Assembly: GCA_016432285.1 (NCBI GenBank)
Contig: CP066682.1
Coordinates: 118,434 to 182,433, forward strand
From: Candidatus Kaiserbacteria bacterium
GTDB lineage: Bacteria > Patescibacteriota > Minisyncoccia > Phycocordibacterales > UBA2100
Direction: 5' to 3'
Length of the DNA stretch: 64,000 bases
The stretch's first letter is position 1; the number at the start of each line of letters is the position of its first letter. Shown here in pieces: positions 1 to 63,607 of the stretch. Below the pieces are notes generated by a model. That model ran no database searches. It was not told the DNA's origin and saw only the letters and a list, made by a program, of their open reading frames with translations. Both the position numbers and the translations under genes were made by a program.

Positions 1-533
1 TCAATGAAGTCGCACGCCCCGTCCGTGTTGGTGACGAAATATGACTCGGTAAGAACTCCGTGCAAAGAGCCATATACCGTCATACCATATCCGTCGTTCT
101 TAATTCCTTTATTGGGTAGATTAAGTGCGTTTACGATAGCCGGATGAATATAGCTTGCAAAGATTTTGTCGTTCTTTTGAGTCACAAAACTTTGAGTGTA
201 ATCCGCCGATGTGTTTGTCGAACCGTTATGGTGAATAGATATAAGCACGGTAGAGCCAGCTGCTTCTGCATTCGCTACTCTATCTTGTCGTGAATCTAAC
301 TGAGCGACTTCGTGATAAGTGCCAACGGGTAAAAGTTTTTCAAGCTCTAATCGAACTGCCCAGTTTACATCCGCTTCTATGACTGGAGTTCCGTTGCAGT
401 CTCCTACCGCACCTGTTTCCCCGTTGCCGTGTCCAGCATCGAGAGCTATGAGTTTTCCGTCAAACGGAGTAGCCGCACTGACTGGAAGTGCCATTGTTAA
501 TACCAGTCCTAGAATCGCTATAGAGTTTTTCAT
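1..533 (-). CDS. N-acetylmuramoyl-L-alanine amidase (Amidase_3 / CwlD-like), 3' end runs off window edge
   Basis: Minus-strand translation from ATG at 533: MKNSIAILGLVLTMALPVSAATPFDGKLIALDAGHGNGETGAVGDCNGTPVIEADVNWAVRLE...LISIHHNGS... Signal peptide plus the DAGHG and HHN motifs are typical of Amidase_3. The frame continues past position 1. Low GC. Confidence 0.6.
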   Translation of the reverse strand, partial: MKNSIAILGLVLTMALPVSAATPFDGKLIALDAGHGNGETGAVGDCNGTPVIEADVNWAVRLELEKLLPVGTYHEVAQLDSRQDRVANAEAAGSTVLISIHHNGSTNTSADYTQSFVTQKNDKIFASYIHPAIVNALNLPNKGIKNDGYGMTVYGSLHGVLTESYFVTNTDGACDFI

Positions 534-580
534 ATATTTTTAATAATACTCTTAACTAATAATTCCTCAATTTGCTCAAA

Positions 581-988
581 TCATTCTCTTTGATTTGAGT
601 CGAAAACAACCTTACCCCCGATAATCATTTTTTGTAGAATCCAACTTTCGTTCTCTAGTCTCATAAGCACAGACCAGTCACTTCTAATCATTGCGCCAAA
701 GCTATTTTGCGAATCTACATACGAAATGACCTGATATGAGCCGTTTCCGTCTGTCCCTGCGTGAACAGGCATTATCGGAAACTCAGCGGTGGACGGCGCT
801 TTGAGTCCTCGTAAGACGAACTGTTGTGCTTGAACATGAAGCTCGATTTCATCTGGCACATACGGCTTATTGGTGGGTGGCGAGCTTTCGCCAAAGAAAA
901 CAAAATATCCCCATGTAAGAAAAAGGAGTGGGGCGACCACCAGCATTATGCCTTTTGGTATTGTTCGTTGTTTTGTAAAAACATTCAT
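581..988 (-). CDS. hypothetical membrane-anchored protein, upstream of the amidase
   Basis: 135-aa ORF with an N-terminal hydrophobic segment (IMLVVAPLLFLTWGYFVFF). Low GC, same strand as the amidase. No recognisable motif. Confidence 0.4.
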   Translation of the reverse strand: MNVFTKQRTIPKGIMLVVAPLLFLTWGYFVFFGESSPPTNKPYVPDEIELHVQAQQFVLRGLKAPSTAEFPIMPVHAGTDGNGSYQVISYVDSQNSFGAMIRSDWSVLMRLENESWILQKMIIGGKVVFDSNQRE

Positions 989-1071
989 ATATGGAATCAG
1001 CTACCCTCATTTGCATTATATAACAATATAACAAGTAGTTATATTCCATATAGTTATAGAACATAGATGGT

Positions 1072-1293
1072 ATGAAGAAGACCATTTATGATGATGACTA
1101 CAAAATCTTTGTTAGGAAGCTAAAGAAAGCTCGTAGCGAATCGGGTTTGACTCAGATTCAAGCAGCAAAAAAGCTTGGTTCTACCCAAGCGTATATTTCA
1201 AAAGTAGAGTCTGGTCAGTTGCGAGTCGATGTTTCTCAACTGAAAAAGTTTGCCACCATGTACGGAAAAAGCATCAGCTACTTTTTAAAGTAG
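1072..1293 (+). CDS. XRE-family helix-turn-helix transcriptional regulator (possible RM controller/C protein)
   Basis: 73 aa; LTQIQAAKKLGSTQAYISKVESGQ is a Cro/C1-type HTH signature. Sits immediately upstream of the RM genes. Confidence 0.6.
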   Translation: MKKTIYDDDYKIFVRKLKKARSESGLTQIQAAKKLGSTQAYISKVESGQLRVDVSQLKKFATMYGKSISYFLK

Positions 1294-1304
1294 CCTGCTT
1301 TGAT

Positions 1305-1541
1305 TTAGATGTCCTGTAGAAGTTTTGAAATAGAAACACCTATGCCTTTAGCAAGCTTGCTTATTGTAAAAAGAGTCGGATTCTTTTTTCCTTGTTCGAG
1401 ATTGCTTATATAACTTTTATCCGCGCGGATAGATTTCGCAATTTGCATTTGAGACAATCCTGCCTTCAAACGCGCCTTCCTTAGATTCCTTCCGAATCGC
1501 GGGTAAAGATCGTTTCTCATGAAGTTATCCACAGAATACAT
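1305..1541 (-). CDS. XRE-family helix-turn-helix transcriptional regulator
   Basis: 78 aa; LSQMQIAKSIRADKSYISNLEQGKKNP is a Cro/C1-type HTH. Convergent with the previous regulator; the stop codons are 11 nt apart. Confidence 0.6.
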   Translation of the reverse strand: MYSVDNFMRNDLYPRFGRNLRKARLKAGLSQMQIAKSIRADKSYISNLEQGKKNPTLFTISKLAKGIGVSISKLLQDI

Positions 1542-1622
1542 CGTTACTTTTTAATAAGATAGTTGTATTATAGTACAACCAGTGTATAATACAAGGGTAA
1601 TGCTAAAATATAACTATCCCTC

Positions 1623-2642
1623 ATGAGATATTACGGCTGTAAAACAAAGCTTTTGGATTATATTTCTGATGTCGTTGCATCTCTTTCTGTAAAAAAAGGG
1701 GCAACTTTTTTTGATATCTTCAGTGGTACTGCTGCAGTCGGGAAACATTTTAAGAGACTGGATTACACGGTCTACTCAAATGACTTTTTAGAGTTTGCAC
1801 ATGCCTTTGCACGTTGCTATATCGAGACAAACTCAAAGCCCAGGTTCGCTAACCTGAAGATTAACGAGGATGTTATTGCGTACTTGAATGAGTTGAAAGG
1901 AAAAGTTGGTTTTATTACAAAGAACTACTCGCCTTATGGAAAAAATGTCCGCCAGTATATTTCCGTGGAGAACGCAAAGAAGGTTGATGTTATAAGGGAA
2001 ACTATTGAATCTTGGAAAAAATCAAAGAAAATATCATCAACGGAGTATTACTACCTTATAACCAGTCTGATAGACGCGATTAATCTGGTAAGCAACGTTA
2101 CTGGAACTTATGCCGCATATTTGAAGACTTGGGACGCTCGTGCTTTGAAGCCAATGAAGCTTTCGCACCCCAAAATAATCCCGAGCATTAGAGAGAACAA
2201 ATCGTTTAATGAAGATGCAAATAAGTTAATCAGTAAATATCGCGTAGATATTTTATATTTAGACCCGCCGTATAACGCCAGACAATTCGCCTCTAATTAT
2301 TTTTTTCTTGAGTTGATAGCAGAGGGATGGTTTAAAAAACAACCTGAGATATATGGCGGTTCGGGAATGCGTCCTTACGAACACCAAAAATCTGATTACT
2401 CGATTTCAAGAAAAGCGGCAGATGCTCTGAACGATTTAGTGATGAAAGCGAAAGCAAAATACATCTTATTGAGCTATAACAATGAGGGCATTATCCCTCA
2501 CGAAAAGATAAGAGAGATACTTAGCAAGCGTGGAAAAGTTAAAGTATTCGAGAAAAGTCATCGAAGATATCGTGCAATCAATCAAGACGGTAGTAATGTT
2601 GTAACGAAAGAGAGCTTGTTTCTAGTTAAAGTCGAAAAATGA
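1623..2642 (+). CDS. DNA adenine methyltransferase, D12 (Dam-like, alpha) class
   Basis: 339 aa. AdoMet motif I (FDIFSGTAAVG) lies N-terminal and catalytic motif IV (DILYLDPPYN) C-terminal, which is the alpha order of D12-class N6-adenine MTases. Confidence 0.75.
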   Translation: MRYYGCKTKLLDYISDVVASLSVKKGATFFDIFSGTAAVGKHFKRLDYTVYSNDFLEFAHAFARCYIETNSKPRFANLKINEDVIAYLNELKGKVGFITKNYSPYGKNVRQYISVENAKKVDVIRETIESWKKSKKISSTEYYYLITSLIDAINLVSNVTGTYAAYLKTWDARALKPMKLSHPKIIPSIRENKSFNEDANKLISKYRVDILYLDPPYNARQFASNYFFLELIAEGWFKKQPEIYGGSGMRPYEHQKSDYSISRKAADALNDLVMKAKAKYILLSYNNEGIIPHEKIREILSKRGKVKVFEKSHRRYRAINQDGSNVVTKESLFLVKVEK

Positions 2643-2643
2643 T

Positions 2644-3447
2644 ATGGCATCAAAAATGAACAACTTGTCGGGAAAAGAGTGGTTGCAAAACTCTTTTACT
2701 ATCTGGAGAGATATCGCAAAAACAAATGGCGAACGAAAACTAAAACACCCAGCGATGTTTCCTTCGCAACTTGCTGAGAAGCTAATCAATATCTACACAA
2801 AAGACCCCGGAGAGGTCATTTTAGACCCATTTTTGGGCATTGGCTCAACTCTATTGGCCGCTTATAGAACTGGTAGAAAAGGAATCGGGATTGAGTTAAA
2901 TAAAGATTATTGCAAGATAGCAAAAACAAGAGCAACTGAATATCAAGGAGAGATTTTTGAAACAAACATAGAAAGATTTGCTCCAGAAGTATATTGCGCA
3001 GATTCACGCAATTTACTGAAGTATGTGAAACCAGAATCAGTAGACTTAGTTGTTACTTCCCCGCCATACTGGGATATTCTCAACATGAAAAGAAGCGCAG
3101 ATTCTAAAGAGATTCGCAACTATTCTGACTCAAAAAAAGATTTAGGAAACATCAACGACTACGAAGCATATTTGCAAGACTTAAAGGCAGTCTTTGAGAA
3201 AGTTTATGTGGCATTAAAACCAAATAAACGATGCTGTTCAGTTGTTATGGATATTCGAAAAAAAGATAAATTCTATCCTTTGCACGAAGACCAGACTAGA
3301 ATAATGAAAGAGATTGGTTTTGAGATTGAAGAGTATGTAATCTGGGATAGACAGAAAGAATACAACAACATGAAAACACTCGGATATCCGTATGTTTTCC
3401 GATTTAACAAGGTACACGAGTTTGTTTGTATCTACTGGAAGCGGTAG
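2644..3447 (+). CDS. DNA methyltransferase, N6_N4_Mtase family (permuted motif order)
   Basis: 267 aa. KHPAMFPSQLAEKLI...VILDPFLGIGSTLLAA (motif X plus motif I) is followed about 70 aa later by DLVVTSPPYW (motif IV). The start is 2 nt after the preceding MTase stop. Confidence 0.75.
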   Translation: MASKMNNLSGKEWLQNSFTIWRDIAKTNGERKLKHPAMFPSQLAEKLINIYTKDPGEVILDPFLGIGSTLLAAYRTGRKGIGIELNKDYCKIAKTRATEYQGEIFETNIERFAPEVYCADSRNLLKYVKPESVDLVVTSPPYWDILNMKRSADSKEIRNYSDSKKDLGNINDYEAYLQDLKAVFEKVYVALKPNKRCCSVVMDIRKKDKFYPLHEDQTRIMKEIGFEIEEYVIWDRQKEYNNMKTLGYPYVFRFNKVHEFVCIYWKR

Positions 3448-3951
3448 TTAGTTGAGCAGGAAGTCCTTTTTGTTGAAAGGTACAATGGAGTTTTGATTTA
3501 TTGAATCTGATTTCTCATCCCAAGCAAAAATAGTTATTTCTCCACCGCCATTAAGTTGTAGAATTCGTTTTCTAATGTCATCGTCAAGCAATAGTATATT
3601 TACTTCACTTGAAAGTCCTCTGGTAGAAGCAAGAAATACAAGGGTGGATTTTGTAAGACGAGCGTAGCAGTTGATTTCTCCGATTTCTTTCAAACTGAGC
3701 GCAGAGGTCGATCTGTTTAACAACACGACTTCCTTATGCTTAGTCGTTTTGTCTTGGATGATACCAAACACATCTGGCTTGAAGTCCCACGATGAATAAT
3801 TCTGAAGTCCTTTAATATGTTCGTTATTTAGTTTTGCCAGACTTGAAGTTGGAGCTAACACTTCAAGTACTGTATGTGTGGAAGCAAGCTTTCTTTTAAA
3901 AAAACTTTCTAACCACTGTCTCATTTTTTCTGTAAAATCATTTTTTTCCAT
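3448..3951 (-). CDS. hypothetical protein, RM-associated (possible specificity/accessory subunit)
   Basis: The ORF track gives 183 aa from 3999. An internal start MEKNDF at about 3951 would begin just after the upstream nuclease stop (3956); the longer form overlaps that gene by 44 nt. No recognisable motif. Confidence 0.35.
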   Translation of the reverse strand: MEKNDFTEKMRQWLESFFKRKLASTHTVLEVLAPTSSLAKLNNEHIKGLQNYSSWDFKPDVFGIIQDKTTKHKEVVLLNRSTSALSLKEIGEINCYARLTKSTLVFLASTRGLSSEVNILLLDDDIRKRILQLNGGGEITIFAWDEKSDSINQNSIVPFNKKDFLLN

Positions 3952-3955
3952 ATTT

Positions 3956-5590
3956 TTATATCTCGATAGATTCGAGGGATTTGCCTGTCCAAACTCCAAG
4001 TTTTATACGCTTTCCTTTGGAGTATTCCAGTAAGTCAGGACGTGCTTTTAAAATCATGACAAGTGATGTCGCGATTGGTTTGTTGGAGACAAGTAAAGCT
4101 TCTTCAGGTTGAGCAACAAAACAATATCCTAAGAGTTGCCCGATTGCTTTCAAATCAAGGGGCGTTATTTTGGCTTCAATAAAAGCAATACGGCGCGTTT
4201 TTGTTAAAAAGCCCACGATGTCAGGACGAATTCTGTACTGGTCGCAGTAATCAAAGACTTCGAGCAGGCTTGGGTTTCTATTTTTCAAAAATAGATTTAG
4301 ATTTCCTGCTGACGTATCAAATGTTATTACATCCTCTTCATATTTTTTGGTTAGATACTCATGCAGATAATCCGAAAGTGGCTCGTATAGAGAAGATTCA
4401 AGTACTGATTCTGCATCTTGTTCTTTCCGCAGCTTCTTTTCAGTTGGTTCTGCGCCTTTTGCAAAAGCTTCCTCTTTAAGTTTTGTGCTAATCGCATCTC
4501 TTTCTCTCATAAGAACGTCTATATCCCCATCGCCTTTCGAATCGCCCGTTAATGCAAAGTACTCTAGATTTTTTGAATGTTTCTGTAATTCGCCTAGGAA
4601 TTTGCAACCCATAGCTAGGTTTATTTGCCAGAATGCGTCGAAGTGCTTCCTAGCGGGTTCTGGTATCCGCAAATCCTGTTCTCCCGGATGATATGCTTTG
4701 ATTTTTCCGGTTGTAACTTTGGACGGTGGAAACCAATCATCTTTATCTTTAAAGACTGTGGCGACATTATGATTATGCAACTCATCGAAAAGAGACTGTT
4801 TTGAACTTATCCTGAACTTAAACATTCCATAGTATTCGGGAAAGAACTTTAGTTGATGTTCACGGCTCCAAGTTGTCGGACGAGCATTAAAAAAGTCGGT
4901 AAGATTTGCATCTCTGATGTTGGGATGTCCCCAGTCAATGGTGTGAATAGGGAGTCCGAACTCTGAACGTAAAAAATTATCTATCTCGACAGGCAGGTGC
5001 CAGTTTCGCACTAACTGAAAATATACTCTCATTCTGCCGTGTCCTTTTTCACCGTCACGGTTTAACCAACCGCCAGGAGAAGGAAAACCAGAAGTGTCTA
5101 GCAATCCATTTATAAATTCGATTTTCGATGCTTTCTCTACTTCGTGAATGGCTTTTGGTATATGGAATCTATCAAAACTCGTGTCTGGCACAAAATGTGA
5201 AAGTACCTCATCAAATACTTTTCCATAGTCTTGAAAATCCACGACCAATAAAGTCATGGTTTTGTTGCCTGTTATATCGAACTTCGCGCCTATCTCTTTG
5301 CTGAGAAACGGGATGATTACATTCTTTAATGACTCAACAGCAGATACTGGTTGGTTGTATGTTTTCTTTACTGAAGGGTCAACGGGTTTACCACAAGCAG
5401 GATTTTTGCACTTCAGGCCGTTGCCATTATTGGTTGCCAGCCAACCGCATACGGGACAATGTGCAATACCTTCCGCATATTCGTTGGCATGTGAAAATTC
5501 GATAGCGATTATTTTGCTATCGTGAAATAGGTGTCCTCTCCCTGTTATGAGCCCTAAAAAATAGGAAAATGTGGGTGTAATGGATTTCAT
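3956..5590 (-). CDS. putative restriction endonuclease: LAGLIDADG-like/zinc-ribbon N-terminal region plus C-terminal PD-(D/E)xK nuclease
   Basis: 544 aa. N-terminal FLGLITGRGHLF and FINGLLDTSGF resemble paired LAGLIDADG motifs. CPVCGWLATNNGNGLKCKNPACGKP is a Cys4 zinc ribbon. The C-terminal YRIRPDIVGF...RRIAFIEAK fits the D...(D/E)xK nuclease core. Adjacent to two MTases. Confidence 0.55.
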   Translation of the reverse strand: MKSITPTFSYFLGLITGRGHLFHDSKIIAIEFSHANEYAEGIAHCPVCGWLATNNGNGLKCKNPACGKPVDPSVKKTYNQPVSAVESLKNVIIPFLSKEIGAKFDITGNKTMTLLVVDFQDYGKVFDEVLSHFVPDTSFDRFHIPKAIHEVEKASKIEFINGLLDTSGFPSPGGWLNRDGEKGHGRMRVYFQLVRNWHLPVEIDNFLRSEFGLPIHTIDWGHPNIRDANLTDFFNARPTTWSREHQLKFFPEYYGMFKFRISSKQSLFDELHNHNVATVFKDKDDWFPPSKVTTGKIKAYHPGEQDLRIPEPARKHFDAFWQINLAMGCKFLGELQKHSKNLEYFALTGDSKGDGDIDVLMRERDAISTKLKEEAFAKGAEPTEKKLRKEQDAESVLESSLYEPLSDYLHEYLTKKYEEDVITFDTSAGNLNLFLKNRNPSLLEVFDYCDQYRIRPDIVGFLTKTRRIAFIEAKITPLDLKAIGQLLGYCFVAQPEEALLVSNKPIATSLVMILKARPDLLEYSKGKRIKLGVWTGKSLESIEI

Positions 5591-5677
5591 GCGACATTAG
5601 CCTGTCGCTAAAATCCTCGCATTTTTTAGGGCAAAAGTACAGCCATACTACTATATATTTGTTGTTTTATAAGCCAA

Positions 5678-5885
5678 CCACCATTTTGGTTGGTCTGCAA
5701 AAAATTTCACGAAGAGTATCCGCCTACTTATATGGCACAATGCAGGCCTGTTTTTTTTACTACTTTTTACAAACCGACCACCAATTTGTTCGTACCGCTA
5801 AAACGGTGAAACCTCTCTTTCCAAGCCGACCTCTAGGATGGTCGGTTTGCAAAGATGCCCTTTCCGTAAGGCAGAGCATCATTTT
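5678..5885. repeat. three degenerate hairpin-containing repeat units (AAGCCRACC...GGTYGGT(C/T)TGCAAA)
   Basis: Unit 1: taagccaaccaccattttggttggtctgcaaa. Unit 2: aaaccgaccaccaatttgttcg. Unit 3: aagccgacctctaggatggtcggtttgcaaa. Each has a CCRACC/GGTYGG inverted repeat. Intergenic, between the nuclease gene start and the 2TM gene stop. Confidence 0.4.
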
Positions 5886-6058
5886 TTATAAAAATCTGCC
5901 TGTGTTGGCACTCGTTTTTGAAGTTCGGCTTGCTCCTGAAGTTTTTGAATGACTCATCCATAGGCCACTTTTACTGGCCTCGCACCAACAAAGTTTCTGC
6001 TTCTGTAAAAAGACTCACTCGCGTGCGTACGCGAAATTATAGCGGTCTATTTGCAGTG

Positions 6059-6682
6059 TCAGCGAGTTTCTACTCGCTTCACCTCGATTGTTCCAAAGTT
6101 GTTCCTATCTCTTCCTGAGTAGTAGTATCCTGCCAATGAATTACTATCGGGGCCATAGGTTAATTTTGCTGAGCCTTCGTGCATAGCCATTGTCTGTGTA
6201 GCATCGTATGACGGTTCATTCCTGAAAAAGTAAAACAGTGCTACTCGGTTATCTATCTCACTTCTACCAAAGTTTTCATGGATGCTAACGGACTTCGATT
6301 TGTTAAAAGTTCCACAGATTTTTATTTTTGTTGCAGTTTGCTCGATTACAAGCTGCGCCTCTATGTCAGTTGCAAAGTTGTCGTAAGAAGATTTTAAACT
6401 GCCGACCCACTTTCCATTTAAATCATCGGCTACAATAATGCCGAGCCGTTTAAAGATTTTCTTTTTCCAAAGAAATCTATCAAACAACACAAAAAGAAAA
6501 GCATACACCGCAGGAATAGACGGTGTTTCAATATAAAAAGGCACGACAATCCCGTATGACTTCAAGGTGTAAGAAATCATATAGACGACTACGGCACTGA
6601 TACCAACTAATATCAAAATGAATGCCGTGAACTGTTTGTAGTTGTTGCCGTCGATGTTCATATAGATGTCCAGTTGTCCCAC
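6059..6682 (-). CDS. 2TM effector with predicted beta-rich C-terminal domain (Cap15-like; CBASS/NTase-associated membrane effector)
   Basis: 207 aa. Two N-terminal hydrophobic helices (FTAFILILVGISAVVVYMISYTL; IPAVYAFLFVLFDRFLW), then about 130 aa with eight alternating beta-like segments (KWVGSLKSS, AQLVIEQ, KIKICGTF, SVSIHENF, VALFYFF, MAMHEGSAKLTY, LAGYYYSG, GTIEVKRV). Overlaps the upstream NTase gene by 25 nt. Confidence 0.5.
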   Translation of the reverse strand: MGQLDIYMNIDGNNYKQFTAFILILVGISAVVVYMISYTLKSYGIVVPFYIETPSIPAVYAFLFVLFDRFLWKKKIFKRLGIIVADDLNGKWVGSLKSSYDNFATDIEAQLVIEQTATKIKICGTFNKSKSVSIHENFGRSEIDNRVALFYFFRNEPSYDATQTMAMHEGSAKLTYGPDSNSLAGYYYSGRDRNNFGTIEVKRVETR

Positions 6683-7572
6683 AAGTGAGCCAATGCACTT
6701 AGTGTTTTTGTCGCGTTGTCATGATGCCAGTGAATACCGGAGTTTCCGAAAAGTTCATGCTGTCCGCTTTGGGTGGTAAAATCTTGCTTGTTGTTTTCGA
6801 TGAGATATTTCAGCGTGTTATAGACGGCCGTACTGTCGTTTCCTGCGAAATGTTCGTTTGGCACATTGTAAATCATGCACTGCAAGAAATATGAGGGCGC
6901 GACGTCTTTGTGGAGAAGTCCTTTGTCTACTGCGTATGCTCGTGCATTTTTGATAATACGAACAATCCTTTTAAAAGCATCAGAGGTCGCTTTGTGTTTG
7001 GCGACGCCGTTGGAATAGTGTTGGTCTGGGTAGTTTATAACCTCTGCATTTGTCATTCGGTGATAGAACATAATACCCTCTACTTTGGCGTGATTCGTGT
7101 GGCCTAGAAAGTAAGAATAGTTGCGGTGCGCGATTACTGGCACGATGTCTGCACGCAAACGGCCATTATTTTTTTGCACTTTGATTGATTTGTTTCCCGA
7201 GACATCAACAGAAGCCACACCATAATACTCATTCAATGCTGTAATAATGTCGCGACGTAAATGCGACCAGTCATATGTCGCTACTGGATATGTTTGCTCG
7301 TGAAGCAAGAACTGATTTGTTGGAAGTGAGTACTTGTTCGAGCCAAAGACATTGAGCCGCACGAGCACATCTACATCACTGTCGCCTCTGGTGTTTGTGT
7401 CGTTTGCGTACGACCCCTGCAAATCGACTCGTATATTGCCCGAGGCAATCTTTTCTCGAATCGGTGACTTACTACCAGTCAGCGCGTTCCTGACCGACTG
7501 GTATGTGGTACTAGAAAGGTCTTTTGAACCTTGTTTTGCCCATGTTTCCAATTGGTCAGCGGGTATCGCCAT
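6658..7572 (-). CDS. minimal nucleotidyltransferase, CD-NTase/SMODS-like (putative signal synthase)
   Basis: 304 aa. GSYANDTNTRGDSDVDVLV matches the pol-beta NTase signature [GS]-x10-[DE]h[DE]h. The size and the downstream 2TM partner are typical of type I CBASS-like operons. Low GC. Confidence 0.6.
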   Translation of the reverse strand: MAIPADQLETWAKQGSKDLSSTTYQSVRNALTGSKSPIREKIASGNIRVDLQGSYANDTNTRGDSDVDVLVRLNVFGSNKYSLPTNQFLLHEQTYPVATYDWSHLRRDIITALNEYYGVASVDVSGNKSIKVQKNNGRLRADIVPVIAHRNYSYFLGHTNHAKVEGIMFYHRMTNAEVINYPDQHYSNGVAKHKATSDAFKRIVRIIKNARAYAVDKGLLHKDVAPSYFLQCMIYNVPNEHFAGNDSTAVYNTLKYLIENNKQDFTTQSGQHELFGNSGIHWHHDNATKTLSALAHLWDNWTSI

Positions 7573-7573
7573 G

Positions 7574-7783
7574 TTAGTCCAGATTATTTCCCTCTTTCCC
7601 GTCAGGGTTTGAAACAGGTGTTCTCACTCCGTTAACGACACGGACATGATAATTTTCATAGTCGCCACATTCTATTTTTTGCACGAACTGAGTGCGTGTC
7701 ATATTTCTGCCAGTAGCGTTGTCATGAAACTGAAGATTCCGACCTGATTCGCTTTCGTCCGTGACTGTTACTCTTTTTGCCAT
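7574..7783 (-). CDS. small conserved protein, DUF3892-like
   Basis: 69 aa. TRTQFVQKIECGDYENYHVRVVNGVRTPVSNPDGKEGNNLD recalls the DUF3892 pattern (call made from memory). Only 1 nt from the NTase start, same strand. Confidence 0.35.
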   Translation of the reverse strand: MAKRVTVTDESESGRNLQFHDNATGRNMTRTQFVQKIECGDYENYHVRVVNGVRTPVSNPDGKEGNNLD

Positions 7784-7784
7784 G

Positions 7785-8414
7785 TTAGTTTAGTGGGTTA
7801 GGTATGCTGTTAATGACTACTCCCTGCACCATGAAATCGCCCTCAAGGATAATCGGCTTATGTGCAGGGTTGCTCGACCGAGGCACGAGTACCACCTTGT
7901 CTCCTTTTCTTTGAAACTCCTTGACGGTGGCGTCATCACCGATGAGGGCAACAACACGCTCTCCGTTGTCTGCAACAGGTTGCTGTCGAACTACGAGCAG
8001 GTCGCCGTCCTTGATTCCACTTTTGTTCATGGAGTCACCCGTAGCTCGGAGCAGAAAATACTGCGCCCCTGGTTTCGCAATTCGCTGAGAAACAGGAACC
8101 CATGCTTCTATGTTTTCTTCCGCTAAGAGCGGTAGCCCGCATGGAACTGAACCGACAAGAGGTATTTCCACTACACGTTCTGTCTCCGTTCTTCCGCCGA
8201 GGTCTTTTAGCAACCGCAAGCTACCCATAGCGGTACGTTCAAGGTAGCCCAGGTCTACGAGTCGTTCGATAAGGAGTGCCGCAGAACGAGAGGAGCCGAA
8301 TCCCATATGCTTCGAAATCTCCCGTAATGTAGGAGATTTACCACGATAAATAATGTAGTCGCGGATATAGAAAAGCCCTTTAAAATCTCGGGGGTTTAAG
8401 CCTTTGGTACTCAT
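7785..8414 (-). CDS. lexA: LexA-like repressor (HTH plus S24 peptidase)
   Basis: N-terminal HTH (TLREISKHMGFGSSRSAALLIERLVDLGYLER). C-terminal S24 Ser/Lys dyad region (LLRATGDSMNKSGIKDGDLLVV...KVV). The ORF track starts at TTG 8423; the first ATG is at 8414. GC is intermediate (about 52%). Confidence 0.8.
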   Translation of the reverse strand: MSTKGLNPRDFKGLFYIRDYIIYRGKSPTLREISKHMGFGSSRSAALLIERLVDLGYLERTAMGSLRLLKDLGGRTETERVVEIPLVGSVPCGLPLLAEENIEAWVPVSQRIAKPGAQYFLLRATGDSMNKSGIKDGDLLVVRQQPVADNGERVVALIGDDATVKEFQRKGDKVVLVPRSSNPAHKPIILEGDFMVQGVVINSIPNPLN

Positions 8415-8463
8415 GGTACTCAAAGCTTACCATATGCGTTTTTTATTTGCAAGCCCCCCTCTT

Positions 8464-9423
8464 TTAATAACCGACCTCGGCAAAAAGGACGCCGCGATGC
8501 GCGAGCGTCGCTTCTCCCGGCCGGATGCCGCTCGATCCGCCGCCGATCAAGGATGCGTACGAAGAAGTGTGATGCGGTGAGCGGAAGGGCGGCCGGTACA
8601 CCGGGCCGCCGAGGAGACCGAGGAGAATACCCGCGAGCGAGTGGATGGTGGTTACTTCGATCATCTCCTCTTCGCCAAGGTCGGGGAGTACGGATGCGGT
8701 GGCGCGTGCGAGGAGCGTTTTCCCGGTGCCCGGAGGGCCCCACAGCGCGATGTTGTGTCCGCCCGCGGCGGCGATGATGAGCGCGCGCTTCGCGCTCTCT
8801 TGGCCGCGGATTTCGTCGAGGGCCGTGTCTTCGGGCTCGGCGCGCTTTATTTTCTGCACAGCAGAGCGTGGCTTCCCTCTGCCTCCGAGTTGCGCGAGCG
8901 CGTCTTCGAGTGAAGCAACCGGATGCACGCGCAGCCCCGAGATCAGCGATGCTTCCGCAGCATTTTCTTCCGGCATGAAAAGATCGGTGAATCCGCGATC
9001 GCGCGCTTCGCTCGCGATCGAGAGCGTGCCGAGAATCGGGCGGATCGTACCGTCGAGGGCGAGCTCTCCCGCAAATACTTTGCCCGCAGGGTCAAATGCT
9101 GCCTGTTCCGATGCGAGGAGGAATGAGAGCGCGAGCGGGAGATCGAATGCTGCGCCCTCCTTTTTGAGCGCGGCGGGCGCGAGCGAAAGAACGATCTTCT
9201 TGTTGCTCTTTTTGGGCGACTCGAGGTCGTTGGTATTTTTGATTGCGGCTGCGAGACGATCCTTCGCCTCTTCCACCGACTTGTCGGGGAGTCCGACGAT
9301 GGCAAACGCGTGGAGGCCTTTCACGATGTCGCACTCCACGCTCACGATGGTCGCTTTTGGCAGCGCGGGCTGTGCGCCAAAGACGCGCGCGAAGCCCGAT
9401 TTTATTTTTTGTGCGCCGGCCAC
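8464..9423 (-). pseudogene. comM: comM/yifB (Mg-chelatase-like AAA+ competence protein), truncated at Walker B
   Basis: 319 aa with the Lon-like/ChlI N-terminal domain and Walker A (GPPGTGKT). The ORF ends ...HRGVLFAEVGY*, exactly where intact ComM has GVLFLDELPEF. The C-terminal third (about 190 aa) is missing, and high-GC sequence gives way to the low-GC island here. Confidence 0.7.
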
Positions 9424-19864: not shown

Positions 19865-20140
19865 CTACGCCGACTGGAACTGCGAATCGAGCGCGGCGTC
19901 GATCCATCGTTTCTGAATAGCCGGATGTTGACCGCGATGTTCGAGACGCGCGAACACCATGATCGCATGGAGCACGGCCGTGGTTCGGGGAAGCGAAGCG
20001 TCGCGAAGGTGCAGCTCGGCGCGCGACATCTCTTCGAGGCTTCCCTCGGCGGGCATCTTGCCCGCAAACCACTGCCGCACAGCGGCGCCGGCTTTCCAGA
20101 CGCCTTCGTGCATCCGGTCGTAATCGAGAGGTTTCGGCAT
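19865..20140 (-). CDS. hypothetical protein
   Basis: 92 aa from MPKPLDYDRMHEGVW. A GGGAGAAAG RBS precedes the ATG. No homology recognised. Confidence 0.3.
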   Translation of the reverse strand: MPKPLDYDRMHEGVWKAGAAVRQWFAGKMPAEGSLEEMSRAELHLRDASLPRTTAVLHAIMVFARLEHRGQHPAIQKRWIDAALDSQFQSA

Positions 20141-20270
20141 GGCTTTCTCCCTTGTACCGAAGTGTGATGGCAACGTGGAACTTTGTGCCACCAGAAGGCA
20201 TACGCCCGAAGCGCGAGCGTGTCAATGCGGCGTACTAGTCCAGTACATTTGTCATGCGTGTACTGTTAGA

Positions 20271-20870
20271 TCACGTGTCTATCAGTTTTTCCGCTTCTTT
20301 CAAATGATTAGGAAAGATTACCAACCCGGCATTAATAAGGCATTTGAGATAGTCATCGAATGAGAGCCTGGGATTCTTCAATGCTTTTCTATGTTCTTTG
20401 ATCGTCTCCAATGTCTGATCTCGTTCTAAAGAAAGGTGATGAGTCAAGAATTGATCCGGGTGCTGTACTTCAATCCCAAAAGGAGCAAGAACATCGGAAG
20501 GAAAATGTTTTGTATTTGCAGTGACTATAAGGTCACAGCGGCCGCAAAGAGCCGCGATGACGACGTGTTCGTCTTTTGCGTCGGGCAGTTTCAAGCCAGG
20601 AACTGCGACGCCGTTACACTCTATTAGTGCGTCGGGAAATGCGATCCCCATGCGCTCAGTTACGTAGTCGATCTGCTGATTGGTAAGTCCAGCCTTTTTC
20701 AATAGGGCCTCTCTAAGCTCTTTCAGTATGTGGTCACTCCAGTGGATCCGGAACGTATCTCTCAATGCCAAGCGCAAAATGATGTCTCTTAGATATGAGG
20801 GATAGAGAACATTTGTGTCGAGGAAGACAGCGAATTTAGAGATCTGGAAGTTTATGGGGTCCATGCTCAT
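20271..20870 (-). CDS. PIN-domain toxin-like protein
   Basis: 199 aa; [15 protein letters not shown] starts a PIN fold with acidic residues at the expected positions. Lower GC than neighbours. Overlaps the upstream HTH gene by 35 nt. Confidence 0.6.
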
Positions 20871-21321
20871 TTGAGAATTCTGCTAGCTCATCAAGCGCCC
20901 GTTTAGCATCCGCCTTGCGCTGCGTAAGATATTTCATCAGATCCTGGAACAAAATCCGCCTGTGAGTACCAACCATATGATGAGGAATACTGCCGGCGTC
21001 TAATATTTTGATCAGATGCGGCCTCGAAACATTCAAGAGATTAGCGGCTTGGTGTGTTGTAAGTTCGGCGTGATACGGAACGATAGATACCGCACGGCCT
21101 TTGGACAAATCAAAAAGCATTCTTCTGAACAGTTCCACTATTACCGGATCTTGCACCTCAATTTGTTTTTTGTTTGTATCTACAAGAATTAACGACCCCA
21201 ATTCCCTCAAAAGATTGGCCGCAAATTCGATCGTGTTCTTATCCGGAACTATGGGTGTTAGAGGACTTAGAACACCTCTAGAATCGGGTATAACCTTGGT
21301 GTTTGAAGCTGAGTTCTTCAT
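20836..21321 (-). CDS. HTH (excisionase/MerR-like) DNA-binding protein, putative antitoxin
   Basis: 161 aa; [37 protein letters not shown] is an HTH_17-type motif. Immediately upstream of the PIN gene. Confidence 0.5.
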
Positions 21322-21408
21322 ATGGGCAGTATATATCTAAATGCAATAAATGCAATGAAGGTGTGCACATCTCCTCTCCAGGTTAATTCTGCTGATATTG
21401 TGCGACGT

Positions 21409-22317
21409 ATGGCTGGCGATCTGAAGTCTCTCAAAACGCAGTTCCTCGAATACATCGAGATCGAAAAAGGCAGGAGCGTAAAAACGGTCGAGAATTACGA
21501 CCGCTACCTTTCGCGCTTTCTCACGCAGACCAAGGTGAGCACGCCGCGGCAACTCACCGAGCCCGTCGTGCGCGAATTCCGACTTTGGCTCAACAGGCAG
21601 CCGGGCGTCGCGGGAGACATGAAACGCAAGACACAAAATTACTATCTCATCGCGCTCCGCGCGTTTCTCAAATATCTTCGCAAGCAAAATATCGAATCGC
21701 TCCAGCCGGAGCGGATCGAGCTTGCGAAGGTGGGCGGGAGGGATCTGGATCTCATCACCGCCGACGAGCTCAATCGTTTGCTCCGTTCTCCTCAGGGCGA
21801 CGTGCTCCCCATGCTGCGCGACCGGGCGATGCTCGAGCTGCTCTTTTCCACCGGGCTCCGGGTCTCGGAGCTCTGCTCCCTCAACAGCGATCTCGATCTC
21901 TCTCGCGACGAATTCGCGGTGCGCGGCAAGGGCGACAAGGTGCGCGTGGTCTTTCTCTCGTCGTCGGCCAAAAAAGCGGTTGCGGACTATTTGAAAAAAC
22001 GCGGCGACATGGGCGAGGCACTCTTCGTGAGCTACGGCAGAGGCGGGGCGTCGAAAGATCTGCCGCGCATCACGCCGCGCTCCGTGGAGCGAATCGTAAA
22101 GCAGCATGCCATCAAAGCTGGTATCACGCGCAAAGTAACGCCGCATGTGATCCGCCACTCCTTCGCCACCGATCTTTTGGAAGGCGGCGCCGATCTCCGT
22201 TCCGTACAGGCGCTTCTCGGGCACGCCAACATCGCGACCACACAGGTGTACACGCACGTTACCGACAAACATTTGCAGGAAGTGCACAAAGCTTTTCACG
22301 GCAGGCGCAGAAAATAA
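21409..22317 (+). CDS. tyrosine recombinase XerC/XerD family
   Basis: N-terminal SAM-like domain. C-terminal catalytic motifs R...HxxR...Y (HVIRHSFATDLLEGGADLRSVQALLGHANIATTQVYTHV). Start chosen at MAGDLKSL. Confidence 0.8.
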   Translation: MAGDLKSLKTQFLEYIEIEKGRSVKTVENYDRYLSRFLTQTKVSTPRQLTEPVVREFRLWLNRQPGVAGDMKRKTQNYYLIALRAFLKYLRKQNIESLQPERIELAKVGGRDLDLITADELNRLLRSPQGDVLPMLRDRAMLELLFSTGLRVSELCSLNSDLDLSRDEFAVRGKGDKVRVVFLSSSAKKAVADYLKKRGDMGEALFVSYGRGGASKDLPRITPRSVERIVKQHAIKAGITRKVTPHVIRHSFATDLLEGGADLRSVQALLGHANIATTQVYTHVTDKHLQEVHKAFHGRRRK

Positions 22318-38747: not shown

Positions 38748-40487
38748 ATGTACATCAGCGATACGCACCTTCGCTCGTTTCTCGCCGATGCGGGACTCGT
38801 TTCACAAAAAGATTTCGATGCCGCGGAGACGGAAGCCAAGGAGAGCGGTAAATCCGTCGGCGACATTCTCACCGCGCACAACGCGATCGGCGAAGACGAG
38901 CTCCGGCGCACGTATGCGTACATTCTCGGTATTCCGTTTGTCTCGCTCTCAGGCACCGCCATCAAGTACGACACGCTCGCACTGATCCCGGAGCCGGTGG
39001 CGCGCCGCAACAACATCATCGCGTATGCGCACAAGGGCGACGAGCTCGAAGTTGCCATGCTCGACACCGACGACTTGGCCGCGATCGATTTCATCAAAAA
39101 GAAGACGCGCCTCAAAGTGATGCCGCGGCTCACCGACGTCGCTTCGATCAAGTTCGCCCTCAAGCAGTACCAGCAGGGATTGAAAGACAACCTCGGCGAC
39201 GTGATCGAGCGCGAGACGCGCGCGCTCGAAAAGCAAACCGGCGAGGGCGGGGAGAAGGAGCTGCGGGAAATGGCCGAAGGCACGTCCGCAGTGCGCATCG
39301 TCGACACCTTGCTGCGGCACGCCAACGCGCAGAACGCCTCCGACATCCACATCGAGCCGCTCGAAGATTCGCTCCTCATCCGCTACCGCATCGACGGTCT
39401 CCTCCACGACGCCATGGAGCTCCCAAAGCATGCGGCGGCCGCGATCACCGCGCGCGTCAAGGTGCTCGCCAACATGCGCCTCGACGAACACCGTCTGCCG
39501 CAAGACGGGCGCTTCGGGGTGGAGGCCGGCGCGGAGAAAATTTCATTCCGCGTGTCGGTGCTGCCCACCTACTACGGCGAAAAAATCGTGATGCGCCTTT
39601 TGCGCGACTCGATCTCCGGCTTCACGCTGGAGTCGATCGGCTTTCATGGCACCGCGCTGGAGCACATGCACGAAGCGATGAAAGCAACGACCGGCATGAT
39701 CTTGGCGTGCGGCCCCACGGGCGCAGGCAAATCCACCACGCTCTACACGCTTCTCGACATCGTCAACACGCCCGACGTCAACATCTCGACGATCGAGGAT
39801 CCGATCGAGTATCAGATGAAACGCATCAATCAAACGCAGGTGCGGCCCGAGATCGGCTTTACCTTCGCCAACGGCCTGCGCACGCTCGTGCGCCAGGATC
39901 CGGACATCATCATGGTGGGCGAGATCCGCGACAAAGAGACCGCGTCGCTCGCGATCAATGCGGCGCTCACCGGCCACCTCGTGCTCTCGACGCTGCACAC
40001 CAACTCCGCTGCGGGCGCGATTCCGCGCCTCCTTGATATGGGCGTCGAGCCTTTCCTCCTTGTTTCCACGTTGCGGATCTGCATCGGGCAGCGGCTCGTG
40101 AGAAAGCTCACCGCATCGCGCGAAAAGTACGAGCTCTCGCGCGACGAGCAGGCGCAGCTCGAAAAAAACATCGACCCGGCGGTCATCTTGAAAGTGCTGA
40201 AGGAAGAAAAATCTGTTCCGAAGGACGCCACGTGGAAAAACGTGCCGTTTTATAAACCAAAACCCTCGACCGACGCACCCTCGGGCTACGCCGGACGCAT
40301 CGGCATCTATGAAACGCTCGCGGTAAGCCCGGCGATCAAGGAGCTCGTTATGAAAAGCGCCACCGACGACGCGCTCTACAAGCAGGCTCGCAGCGAAGGC
40401 ATGCTCACCATGGCCGAAGATGGCATCGTCAAAGCTGCACAGGGAATAACGACAATCGAAGAAGTGCTTCGCGTGGTTACGGAATAG
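38748..40487 (+). CDS. pilB: type IV pilus assembly ATPase PilB (GspE family)
   Basis: N-terminal T2SE_N domain, Walker A (GPTGAGKSTTLYTLL) and Walker B/Asp box (DPDIIMVGEIRD). Confidence 0.9.
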   Translation: MYISDTHLRSFLADAGLVSQKDFDAAETEAKESGKSVGDILTAHNAIGEDELRRTYAYILGIPFVSLSGTAIKYDTLALIPEPVARRNNIIAYAHKGDELEVAMLDTDDLAAIDFIKKKTRLKVMPRLTDVASIKFALKQYQQGLKDNLGDVIERETRALEKQTGEGGEKELREMAEGTSAVRIVDTLLRHANAQNASDIHIEPLEDSLLIRYRIDGLLHDAMELPKHAAAAITARVKVLANMRLDEHRLPQDGRFGVEAGAEKISFRVSVLPTYYGEKIVMRLLRDSISGFTLESIGFHGTALEHMHEAMKATTGMILACGPTGAGKSTTLYTLLDIVNTPDVNISTIEDPIEYQMKRINQTQVRPEIGFTFANGLRTLVRQDPDIIMVGEIRDKETASLAINAALTGHLVLSTLHTNSAAGAIPRLLDMGVEPFLLVSTLRICIGQRLVRKLTASREKYELSRDEQAQLEKNIDPAVILKVLKEEKSVPKDATWKNVPFYKPKPSTDAPSGYAGRIGIYETLAVSPAIKELVMKSATDDALYKQARSEGMLTMAEDGIVKAAQGITTIEEVLRVVTE

Positions 40488-40526
40488 CGAACGTGAACGC
40501 GTTGTTTCGATGGTACTCTTTTTGGC

Positions 40527-61680: not shown

Positions 61681-62142
61681 ATGCGACGCCCTGTCAAAAA
61701 TCGCAACCAGCCCGGCCCCGACGAGATCTACGGATCCGTGAAGGTCTCGAAGCTCATCAACTACGTGATGGAGCGTGGCAAGAAGGACACTGCACGGAAG
61801 ATCGTCTACAAGGTGATGGAGGAGTTGAAGAAGGACGGCGACCCTGTCGCACTCCTTGAGCAGGCGCTCGAGAACGCGTCTCCCACCGTGGAGGTGCGCA
61901 GCCGCCGCGTCGGCGGCGCCAACTATCAGGTACCGCGCGAGGTCAACCCAAACCGCAAGCTCGCACTCGGGCTCCGCTGGATCGTGGAGGCAGCCGAGGG
62001 CACCAAAGGTAAGCCCATGAACGAATCGCTGCTCACGGAGCTGAAGGCCGCGATCAAGAACGAGGGCGTAGCCGTCACCAAGAAAGAAACGACCCACCGC
62101 ATGGCCGAAGCCAACAAGGCCTTCGCCCACTTCGCGTGGTAG
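61681..62142 (+). CDS. rpsG: 30S ribosomal protein S7
   Basis: S7 family motifs (GKKDTARKIVY...RRVGGANYQVP). Confidence 0.9.
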   Translation: MRRPVKNRNQPGPDEIYGSVKVSKLINYVMERGKKDTARKIVYKVMEELKKDGDPVALLEQALENASPTVEVRSRRVGGANYQVPREVNPNRKLALGLRWIVEAAEGTKGKPMNESLLTELKAAIKNEGVAVTKKETTHRMAEANKAFAHFAW

Positions 62143-62173
62143 ACAAACAGATACCTTCTGGCACCATACGTGT

Positions 62174-62569
62174 ATGGGTCTAGAAAATAAGAAAAGTCTG
62201 GAGTCGGAAGCAGTTGATATCCAGAAGTTAGGGCAAGATTTCGCAGACTTGGCTGACCAGCGAAGATTTGCGGAAATCCAAATTTTGGCAAAACAAGTAA
62301 GACTCACTCCGCAACAGCTTTCTAATACTTTCGAACAGGCGATAAGAATTATGCAAAAAAAATCGCCTCTTACCCTAACCAATAGACCCATTACCATAGG
62401 TTTGACAGGAGGCGCGCTGCTCGGGATGTTAGCAGGTCAGATTGTTGTGGGAGCTATGGCTGGAGGTTCCGCAGGTGCCATCGTGGACCAGATGCAAGAA
62501 CATGCGCAGAGGGATAAACTCCAGAAACTAATAGAAGCGAAAGAATGGCTCGAAAAGAGCAATAGTTGA
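62174..62569 (+). CDS. glycine-zipper membrane protein, hypothetical (lower GC, part of insertion)
   Basis: GLTGGALLGMLAGQIVVGAMAGGSAGAIV is a glycine-zipper motif. About 45% GC. Confidence 0.4.
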   Translation: MGLENKKSLESEAVDIQKLGQDFADLADQRRFAEIQILAKQVRLTPQQLSNTFEQAIRIMQKKSPLTLTNRPITIGLTGGALLGMLAGQIVVGAMAGGSAGAIVDQMQEHAQRDKLQKLIEAKEWLEKSNS

Positions 62570-62613
62570 CGAAGCATATCCTGTAGTTCACTCAGCCTTC
62601 TTTCAAAAGTAGC

Positions 62614-62637
62614 GACCCGCAGGTTAGACCTGCGGGT
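62614..62637. repeat. REP element gacccgcaggttagacctgcgggt (3' flank of RAYT, overlaps its stop codon)
   Basis: Same palindrome family as 15340..15366 and 63321..63356. Confidence 0.65.
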
Positions 62638-63301: not shown

Positions 63302-63320
63302 CCATTTATCTTATCACCAA

Positions 63321-63356
63321 TCCCGCAGGTCGAACCTGCGGGTGAACCTGCGGGTT
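63321..63356. repeat. REP doublet cccgcaggtcgaacctgcgggtgaacctgcggg (5' flank of RAYT)
   Basis: One full palindrome plus a partial tandem copy of the right arm. Confidence 0.65.
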
Positions 63357-63443
63357 AAGGTCAGCGGGTTAGATCGGAACCGTCTGCGATGTCGGGTGCG
63401 GCTTCACGCTGCGTTTAGCCGCACTCCGTACCATGGGCGGCGT

Positions 63444-63548: not shown

Positions 63549-63607
63549 GCATCTTTGCGTTTTCGCGCCATATCGGCTACATTACTGAAACGCCTTCGGG
63601 CGTCTTT

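Follow-up and report, generated by a model that had tools for sequence, protein, structure and literature searches.

A putative mobile restriction-modification cassette of Candidatus Kaiserbacteria encodes a predicted endonuclease with an inactive LAGLIDADG fold and a PD-(D/E)XK domain

A stretch of 64,000 nucleotides (nt) from the genome of a Candidatus Kaiserbacteria bacterium (GenBank assembly GCA_016432285.1, contig CP066682.1, positions 118,434 to 182,433 of the forward strand), which will be referred to as the window, carries at positions 1072-5590 a group of genes that a sequence-only reading had taken for a restriction-modification (RM) locus. That reading described two methyltransferases of different architecture, a composite nuclease of 544 amino acids (aa), a small linked open reading frame (ORF) and two helix-turn-helix (HTH) genes, all of which were found within this interval. 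The large protein will be called p544, the small linked protein p167, the methyltransferases M1 and M2, and the HTH genes XRE1 and XRE2. Related loci are given L-numbers where they have to be told apart; L001 is a contig of a Candidatus Howlettbacteria metagenome-assembled genome (MAG), L030 is NZ_CP060181.1, and L031-L033 represent an A. baumannii prophage. The methyltransferase and endonuclease genes are arranged as follows:

1623..2642, plus strand: M1, 339-aa D12-class (alpha) methyltransferase with DPPY motif (Pfam PF02086, 6e-34; PADLOC MTase_II, 3e-95)
2644..3447, plus strand: M2, 267-aa permuted N6_N4 methyltransferase with SPPY motif (Pfam PF01555, 1e-34)
3448..3951, minus strand: p167, putative pseudo-nuclease small subunit (from homologue lengths, fold and hhalign comparison with p544)
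3956..5590, minus strand: p544, whole gene, 544 aa (ORF, alignment of 111 homologues, AlphaFold model)
3959..4414, minus strand: p544 residues 393-544, predicted PD-(D/E)XK cleavage domain (invariant residues, secondary-structure order, homology to p167)
4415..4540, minus strand: p544 residues 351-392, long helix and disordered linker (low model confidence, poor conservation)
4541..4780, minus strand: p544 residues 271-350, conserved helical region (invariant H301, E304, H316, W321 and Q322)
4781..5590, minus strand: p544 residues 1-270, predicted double-LAGLIDADG fold and proposed recognition module (AlphaFold and Foldseek)
5381-5470, minus strand: Cys4 ribbon insert, p544 residues 41-70 (C45, C48, C61, C66)

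Homologues of p544 number at least 315, almost all of 538-560 aa, and every one of them is annotated as 'hypothetical protein'. An AlphaFold model was built from 111 sequences and reached a mean predicted local distance difference test score (pLDDT) of 91.5. When this model was compared with the PDB using Foldseek, the N-terminal 250-300 residues matched monomeric LAGLIDADG proteins, namely the TliVMA intein endonuclease (1e-5), PI-SceI, E-DreI, I-DmoI, I-OnuI, I-SceI and WhiA (3hyi); among the matches listed, E-values ranged from 1e-5 to 1e-3, and probabilities were mostly 1.00 and never below 0.77. The order of helices and strands in the model agrees with the LAGLIDADG fold, and in the predicted structure residues 1-270 form a monomeric double-LAGLIDADG fold. 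The two LAGLIDADG-like repeats that had been proposed from the sequence, FLGLITGRG and FINGLLDTSG, are indeed present, and the structural matches to intein endonucleases, I-DmoI, PI-SceI, I-OnuI and WhiA are in line with that proposal.

Alignment with I-DmoI (the sequence used is identical to PDB entry 1b24) revealed the corresponding motif helices, AYLLGLIIGDG in I-DmoI versus SYFLGLITGRG in p544 and AFIKGLYVAEG versus EFINGLLDTSG. The catalytic residues D21 and E117 of I-DmoI align with R18 and S167 of p544. Position 18 is occupied by arginine in 108 of the 111 homologues and by lysine in two, and position 167 by alanine (57), serine (51), threonine (2) or isoleucine (1); neither is ever acidic. 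In a more distant clade of relatives with split genes, described below, the equivalent positions carry arginine or asparagine and threonine, respectively. Judged from these replacements, the LAGLIDADG motifs of p544 are catalytically dead, and the module is therefore most likely the recognition part of the protein. Its interpretation as a second nuclease was rejected, since neither acid position is acidic in any of the 111 homologues. The Cys4 ribbon follows the second strand of the first LAGLIDADG half as an insert; three of its cysteines (C45, C48 and C61) are invariant in the 111 homologues and the fourth, C66, shows at least 90% conservation, confirming the ribbon that had been noticed in the N-terminal half. 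The following region (residues 271-350) contains invariant columns as well and is retained in the split-clade and plasmid homologues that are accompanied by other methyltransferases.

The two parts of p544 are joined by a segment (residues 351-392) that is poorly conserved and missing where the halves are encoded by separate genes, the respective tblastn matches covering residues 4-333 and 398-544. Within this segment model confidence is low over residues 380-392, with pLDDT dropping to 49 over residues 384-390. The C-terminal part displays the order alpha-beta-beta-beta-alpha-beta, with helices at 393-417 and 480-493 and strands at 421-425, 458-462, 467-474 and 497-502. All 111 sequences share E398, D457 (in RPD), E472-x-K474 (in IEAK) and Q485xxxY489, and the domain is homologous to p167 and to the free-standing 163-168-aa nucleases of the split clade. 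According to model and alignment the C-terminal domain represents a PD-(D/E)XK nuclease with a complete signature. The C-terminal motif RPDIVGF...IAFIEAK suggested from the sequence was thus recovered, with D457, E472 and K474 invariant in 111 homologues, and the large protein is not one devoid of catalytic residues. Taken together, each part of the proposed composite nuclease is supported, the zinc ribbon by conservation, the LAGLIDADG-like repeats by the AlphaFold model and the PD-(D/E)XK domain by both.

Database searches with p544 and p167 yielded no significant family in Pfam, NCBIfam, PADLOC or PHROGs. Matches to zf-tcix, RAC_head and CARF_PIN were weak and below the cut-offs and were disregarded. 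Sequence searches of the PDB, performed with the single sequence and with the 111-sequence profile, returned only chance coiled-coil and zinc-ribbon matches.

The small linked gene had been described as a 183-aa ORF starting within the 3' end of the p544 gene or immediately past it. Tight linkage was confirmed, but the size was not: all 43 homologues are 165-169 aa long and start at the equivalent of Met17 of the 183-aa ORF (3448-3999), which was consequently rejected as a mechanical TTG extension. The true product has 167 aa; its ATG lies 4 nt past the p544 stop codon, and its own stop codon abuts that of the convergent M2 gene with zero spacer. The AlphaFold model of p167 (pLDDT 95.4) shows the same order alpha-beta-beta-beta-alpha-beta, and its best Foldseek matches are the cleavage domains of MspJI (8e-4), PaqCI and Can2. 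An hhalign comparison of p167 with p544 residues 399-540 gave a probability of 97.3% (E 2e-11) and placed E398, D457, E472, K474, Q485 and Y489 of p544 opposite K3, D60, N79, S81, E92 and Y96 of p167. In close relatives, these substituted residues are conserved as well. D60 is changed to asparagine in L010 and to lysine in L020, and the A. baumannii copy, read by eye from the unaligned sequence, lacks D60, E89 and Y96; across the p167 alignment only K68 and G91 are universal. A C-terminal tail is common to p167 and the split-clade nucleases and is missing from the nuclease domain of p544. In addition, p167 evolves faster than its neighbours, with 36-61% identity compared to 47-64% for p544 and 63-80% for M2 at the same loci. 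Based on these alignments, p167 appears as a degenerate paralogue of the p544 nuclease domain without the canonical active site.

Both methyltransferases are intact as judged by Pfam, PADLOC and their motifs. M1 covers the full MethyltransfD12 profile (positions 1-253 of 253) with an FxGxG-like motif I (DIFSGTAAVG) preceding DPPY. M2, which starts 1 nt past the M1 stop codon, matches N6_N4_Mtase in two stretches of permuted order (X-I, then SPPY) and contains DPFLGIGST; its nearest solved relatives are TTHA0409 (2zie, 8e-30) and N4-cytosine methyltransferases (8s9n, 3e-14). Class and motif order of both enzymes are as the sequence-only reading had claimed. From these similarities, M1 is probably an N6-adenine (m6A) and M2 probably an N4-cytosine (m4C) methyltransferase. 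M1 has orthologues (38-73% identity) in the A. baumannii prophage and at 15 related genome loci. About ten other loci have, as their second methyltransferase, a gamma-class enzyme of 506-581 aa with an NPPF/NPPY motif, the class (N6_Mtase, Eco57I and TaqI_C domains) being Pfam-confirmed in the four loci scanned. An M2 orthologue, 48-100% identical, is present in every locus with enough flanking DNA, and two methyltransferases of unlike class are found in every locus whose contig extends beyond M2. The SPPY enzyme has stayed constant, and its companion has undergone non-orthologous replacement (D12 or gamma class). A constant M2 combined with an interchangeable adenine methyltransferase would suit an asymmetric site with one enzyme per strand. 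The asymmetric, Type IIS-like site that had been deduced from the two unlike methyltransferases hence gains support from this replacement and from synteny in about 25 loci.

A scan of one genome per species yielded 29 related loci. Within the clade in which p544 is fused, the order p544, small gene, convergent M2 (62-100% identity) was observed in 21 of 21 loci with enough flanking DNA, and the second methyltransferase adjoins M2 wherever the contig extends beyond M2. Overall, the p544/p167 pair stands beside the SPPY enzyme and a second methyltransferase in about 25 loci of bacterial and archaeal phyla; the hosts comprise Patescibacteria, Gamma- and Betaproteobacteria, Actinomycetota, Firestonebacteria, Gastranaerophilales (Cyanobacteria-related), Nanoarchaeota (DPANN) and Thermococci. 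A split clade (L025-L028, 29-37% identity) encodes the recognition and nuclease parts in two adjacent genes: the first specifies a LAGLIDADG-like protein of 295-311 aa that has no zinc ribbon, the second a nuclease of 163-168 aa in which the E...D...ExK...QxxxY signature is complete, and the boundary between them coincides exactly with the position of the p544 linker. No additional degenerate nuclease copy is present in these four loci. Separate-gene modules were also detected in L030 and in two phage genomes. L030 is the 6.5-kb plasmid p9 of Lactiplantibacillus plantarum; its split pair (584-4210) lies downstream of a 700-aa C5 cytosine methyltransferase and is made up of a recognition-like protein (292 aa) and a nuclease that looks active (168 aa), both of which are annotated as hypothetical. 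The plasmid also bears a YafQ toxin gene. No solitary p544 without a methyltransferase was seen among the loci examined.

An exhaustive HMMER search with p544 residues 1-350 returned 149 cluster representatives in 1.84 billion proteins, with fused (~545 aa), split (~300 aa) and long (991-1299 aa) architectures. A Pfam scan of nine relatives of the recognition module, five of 991-1299 aa and four of 363-446 aa, revealed no domains. The five long proteins (P0214, P0215, P0221, P0225 and P0243) carry the conserved second half of the module (~p544 140-335) at their extreme C-terminus. Two loci contain extra ORFs without a Pfam match, a 205-aa ORF between small subunit and M2 in L017 (10100-10717) and a 142-aa ORF between M2 and the recognition gene in L026 (3557-3985). 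The A. baumannii prophage (L031-L033, 5908-12024) bears all four cassette genes. There, M1 is divergent from the endonuclease gene and does not adjoin M2, and the cassette is flanked by phage lysis genes on one side and, on the other, by two HTH genes together with genes for an ArdA anti-restriction protein and a resolvase.

Upstream of the methyltransferases the window contains two small HTH genes, each accompanied by inverted repeats:

1016..1061, strand not assigned: inverted repeats 5' of XRE1, candidate operator (AATATAAC/GTTATATT and outer 14-nt arms)
1072..1293, plus strand: XRE1, 73-aa HTH_3 protein, candidate controller (Pfam HTH_3, 4e-13; PADLOC Control_protein, 5e-7)
1305..1541, minus strand: XRE2, 78-aa HTH_3 protein, C-protein-like (Pfam HTH_3, 2e-13; PADLOC Control_protein, 3e-15, its best PADLOC match)
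1562..1579, strand not assigned: palindrome GTTGTATTA/TAGTACAAC, candidate operator in the 81-nt XRE2-M1 intergenic region

XRE2 is transcribed divergently from M1, with 81 nt between them. The 8-nt arms of AATATAAC/GTTATATT upstream of XRE1 are 100% complementary and separated by a 5-nt spacer, and TGTATAATACAA, which is related to the GTTGTATTA/TAGTACAAC palindrome, is found at about 1583-1594. By their sequence and position, the palindromes near XRE1 and between XRE2 and M1 are possible operators. The copies in L001 are 97% (XRE1) and 100% (XRE2) identical, and a homologue of XRE1 with 51% identity is located directly upstream of the endonuclease gene in L004-L006. The two XRE genes had been taken as a sign of control by controller (C) proteins. 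They are real HTH_3 genes with Control_protein matches, and together with the palindromes they are compatible with C-protein control of the cassette; they are, however, a property of this cassette variant and not conserved in the family.

The cassette resides in DNA of foreign composition. The guanine-plus-cytosine (GC) content of window positions 1-8,460 is 37-44% compared to 56-63% for nearly all of the remaining window, apart from a few patches of 50-54%; the cassette itself has 37-41% GC versus about 60% in the host. Window positions 897-5836 are 96% nucleotide-identical to L001 93-5029, whereas the adjacent flank (window 6-563) reaches only 74%, a sign that the cassette was exchanged recently between bacteria of candidate phyla. 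Two Candidatus Kaiserbacteria entries, QQG38058.1 and QQG38057.1, match window proteins with 100% identity. The host comM gene (8464-9423, minus strand) is truncated: it breaks off after GVLFAEVG, with the junction at 8471-8478. In L001 and L002 comM is cut at the same codon and the cassette is joined to it directly via the junction of CCTAGAGGTCGG with CTTGGAAAGAGAGG. This junction recurs in the window at 5838-5814, exactly at the end of the 96% block, where the following feature was assigned:

5826..5838, minus strand: att-like core CCTAGAGGTCGG, island end (junction shared with L001 and L002)

The repetition of the junction core between the RM module and a neighbouring cyclic oligonucleotide-based antiphage signalling system (CBASS) indicates tandem comM-targeting islands, and the window is ordered as truncated comM, CBASS island, attachment-core repeat and RM island. 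By this comparison of junction sequences, the RM cassette appears as cargo of a comM-targeting element. No integrase was found within the window on the comM side. An assembly chimera as the source of the low-GC segment is unlikely, since two other contigs show the same comM truncation and the same cassette end.

The adjoining CBASS is a two-gene Type I system at 6059-7572 on the minus strand, in which the gene for the cGAS/DncV-like nucleotidyltransferase (CD-NTase; 6658-7572, PADLOC cyclase 2e-99) overlaps that of a Cap15-type two-transmembrane (2TM) effector (6059-6682, Cap15_CD_rec 7e-25) by 25 nt. The comM-proximal island end (7574-8423, minus strand) encodes a 69-aa DUF3892 protein (phrog_11939, 3e-32) and, 1 nt later, a 212-aa LexA-like repressor with Peptidase_S24 and LexA_DNA_bind domains; a LexA-like gene with 29% identity also flanks M1 in L004-L006. 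At the left edge of the window lies a partial minus-strand gene with 74% nucleotide similarity to L001 ORF 5512-6174, which, read by eye, resembles a cell-wall amidase (secreted N-terminus, ALDAGHG motif), and a 135-aa membrane-anchored ORF (581-988) matches PHROGs of unknown function. With these two genes in window 1-988 the island extends past the window start. Elsewhere in the window, GC dips of 0.50-0.54 versus about 0.60 at 20001-22000, 40001-42000 and 62001-64000 may be other acquired segments, and a tyrosine recombinase-like ORF (21322-22317) is located in the region of the first dip.

Gene content, conserved and lost residues, the paralogy of p167, cross-phylum synteny and the existence of split-gene relatives are established by computation, and the folds of p544 and p167 by computation on predicted structures. 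Methyltransferases accompany the p544/p167 pair in numerous phyla and also in plasmid and prophage copies, as expected for Type II RM, and recognition and cleavage modules are separable by the linker in p544 and as separate genes in the split clade, as expected for the Type IIS/IIT kind. We suggest, with a probability of about 0.7, that the cassette is a horizontally mobile Type II RM system, of the Type IIS/IIT kind, whose endonuclease has a new architecture.

We propose that the recognition sequence would be asymmetric, with M1 modifying one strand and M2 the other, and that it is most likely read by the dead double-LAGLIDADG scaffold of p544 with its zinc ribbon; in the split clade, whose nuclease subunit consists of nothing but a catalytic domain, no candidate reader other than the LAGLIDADG saddle is left. 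The flexible linker would allow the PD-(D/E)XK domain to cut nearby, outside the site. Originating from a duplicated nuclease gene and encoded in the same operon, p167 may have taken the place of a second nuclease protomer, pairing with the nuclease domain of p544 and positioning or licensing its single active site. The second strand might then be cut by a second p544 or by a composite p544-p167 site, or the enzyme might be restricted to nicking. XRE1 and XRE2 would probably time the expression of methyltransferases and endonuclease after transfer. That a dead LAGLIDADG scaffold reads the target for a tethered or separate PD-(D/E)XK cutter, while a pseudo-nuclease paralogue controls cutting of the second strand, in what would be the first natural family of this kind, is a tentative proposal to which we assign somewhat less than even odds; for p167, a role as a non-catalytic partner of the p544 nuclease domain is weakly favoured. 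Full use of the LAGLIDADG saddle could mean sites of a length and asymmetry unusual for an RM system.

Several observations weigh against this proposal. LAGLIDADG saddles normally read 14-22 base pairs (bp), far longer than methyltransferase-protected sites. No LAGLIDADG family of Pfam, NCBIfam or PHROGs matches p544 at E ≤0.1, and as no Pfam LAGLIDADG or nuclease model matches the protein, the fold assignment depends on the predicted structure. The motifs TIDWGHPN, REHQxK, HPxE and HFDxWQ are strongly conserved even in relatives with different methyltransferases and are thus not specificity determinants; they may represent a nuclease-docking surface, a DNA-backbone contact or metal binding. 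Furthermore, a p544-p167 pair would possess only one canonical active site for two strands, and most loci of the family have no XRE gene near the cassette.

The single canonical site brings up the question of a true Type IIT heterodimer with two active sites, in which p544 would cut one strand and p167 the other via a non-canonical or composite site. The layout of a large and a small subunit with two methyltransferases is that of BtsI, BsrDI and BspD6I (PMC4081073), and the large subunit of BtsI is reported to contribute to the second catalytic domain (PMC2909958). Moreover, p167 has the nuclease fold, retains PD in most members and conserves the acidic residues E89, E92 and E/D116. A canonical second catalytic site on the small subunit, as in Type IIT enzymes, was nevertheless not found, since K3, N79 and S81 replace the E398, E472 and K474 of p544; D60 is N, K or missing in L010, L020 and the A. 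baumannii copy, respectively, the latter also being without E89 and Y96; and, with no universal residues other than K68 and G91, the alignment shows no BsrDI-type PD-Xn-E-X12-QR pattern. We regard this heterodimer as unlikely. The same degeneration, with the conserved replacements K3, N79, S81 and E92 of p167's own, would also be compatible with p167 being mainly a regulator or inhibitor that occupies the dimer interface of the p544 cleavage domain until a proper site is bound, keeping p544 inactive or nicking-only as a safety device or as a delay while the cassette becomes established in a new host. Translational linkage to p544, the faster evolution compared to p544 and M2, and the split clade functioning without an extra nuclease copy fit such a role. 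A fixed-ratio inhibitor from the same operon, however, offers no obvious timing advantage, and XRE regulators are already part of the cassette, which makes this explanation decidedly unlikely.

It can also be asked whether the LAGLIDADG-like module reads DNA at all or serves as a protein scaffold, with specificity coming from the zinc ribbon, the middle region or a complex with the methyltransferases. The persistence of its most conserved motifs in relatives with unrelated methyltransferases would agree with a scaffold, and the LAGLIDADG domain of WhiA may have given up DNA binding (PMC3384342). On the other hand, the split-clade recognition proteins do without a zinc ribbon, their 163-168-aa nuclease partner amounts to a minimal catalytic domain that shows no obvious means of reading DNA, and neither a methyltransferase fusion nor a conserved adaptor gene was seen in the loci examined; a mere scaffold thus appears distinctly improbable. 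Finally, LAGLIDADG ancestry and the presence of the cassette on mobile islands and in prophages could be reconciled with a nuclease that is not part of an RM system and merely lies near methyltransferases, whether a selfish one of the homing type or a methylation-dependent (Type IV) one. This we consider very improbable indeed, as the pair, wherever flanking DNA suffices, stands strictly beside the same M2 orthologue and no solitary p544 was seen in the loci examined; no intron or intein context exists at the p544 locus, where the gene sits in an RM operon, and a Type IV enzyme beside active methyltransferases would be self-toxic.

While Type II (IIS/IIT) RM is a known kind of system, the architecture of p544 is not contained in any curated family searched. 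Folds surveyed among restriction enzymes comprise PD-(D/E)XK, HNH, GIY-YIG, phospholipase D (PLD) and half-pipe, LAGLIDADG not being among them (PMC2441816), and a LAGLIDADG-based restriction enzyme was not found in the literature searched, although an earlier REBASE listing as a putative enzyme is possible. Within that literature, LAGLIDADG represents the one large homing-endonuclease fold so far unreported among restriction enzymes. If the proposed reading is true, the family would offer a recognition scaffold that is new, can probably be re-targeted and comes with matching methyltransferases, and proteins now annotated only as 'hypothetical protein' would gain a putative function. The split, fused and fused-plus-pseudo-nuclease forms constitute a series that would record the assembly of multi-subunit Type IIS/IIT enzymes. 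Copies are present in culturable hosts, i.e. in an A. baumannii prophage (WP_407487131.1), in Polynucleobacter sp. IMCC30063 (WP_233937673.1) and on small L. plantarum plasmids (NZ_CP060181.1).

Among known systems, FokI and PaqCI possess winged-helix-type recognition domains and recruit further copies of the same protein to complete cleavage. With FokI-type enzymes and PaqCI the p544 family shares the logic of recognition domain, linker and cleavage domain as well as methyltransferases suited to an asymmetric site, and the C-terminal fold of p544 and p167 matches the cleavage domains of PaqCI and MspJI (Foldseek, via p167); unlike FokI and PaqCI, it encodes a dedicated degenerate copy of the cleavage domain. 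The Type IIT enzymes BtsI, BsrDI and BspD6I consist of a large recognising and a small subunit with two methyltransferases, the small subunit cutting the second strand (PMC4081073). In common with these enzymes and BstNBI, the cassette has a large subunit with proposed recognition part and PD-(D/E)XK site, an adjacent small subunit of ~160-190 aa and two methyltransferases. It differs from BtsI, BsrDI and BspD6I in the predicted LAGLIDADG fold of the recognition module, the C-terminal position of the catalytic domain and a small subunit without canonical catalytic residues, and searches of Pfam, NCBIfam, PADLOC and PDB sequences revealed no sequence similarity to them.

The LAGLIDADG homing endonucleases (I-DmoI, PI-SceI and intein endonucleases) are the best structural matches, and their motif helices are recognisable in p544, which in contrast lacks the catalytic acids, a Pfam LAGLIDADG match and an intron or intein host, and has gained a zinc-ribbon insert and a C-terminal nuclease. 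A domesticated inactive LAGLIDADG domain, joined to a further DNA-related domain, is known from WhiA, that of T. maritima having Arg and Gly at the catalytic positions (PMC3384342); p544 shares with WhiA/DUF199 the monomeric double-LAGLIDADG fold and non-acidic catalytic positions (Arg and Ser/Ala). By analogy, the nearest functional counterpart of p544 is the chimera engineered by Lippow et al. (2009), in which a non-cleaving I-SceI with its 18-bp site was fused to the FokI cleavage domain (PMC2685105). In that enzyme, as proposed here for p544, a dead LAGLIDADG protein gives specificity and a tethered nuclease domain cuts beside the site. Whereas the chimera is synthetic and comes without a methyltransferase, the p544 family would combine a site protectable by two methyltransferases with a pseudo-nuclease subunit, and its dead LAGLIDADG reader and generic cutter would represent the natural counterpart of chimeric nucleases such as I-SceI-FokI.

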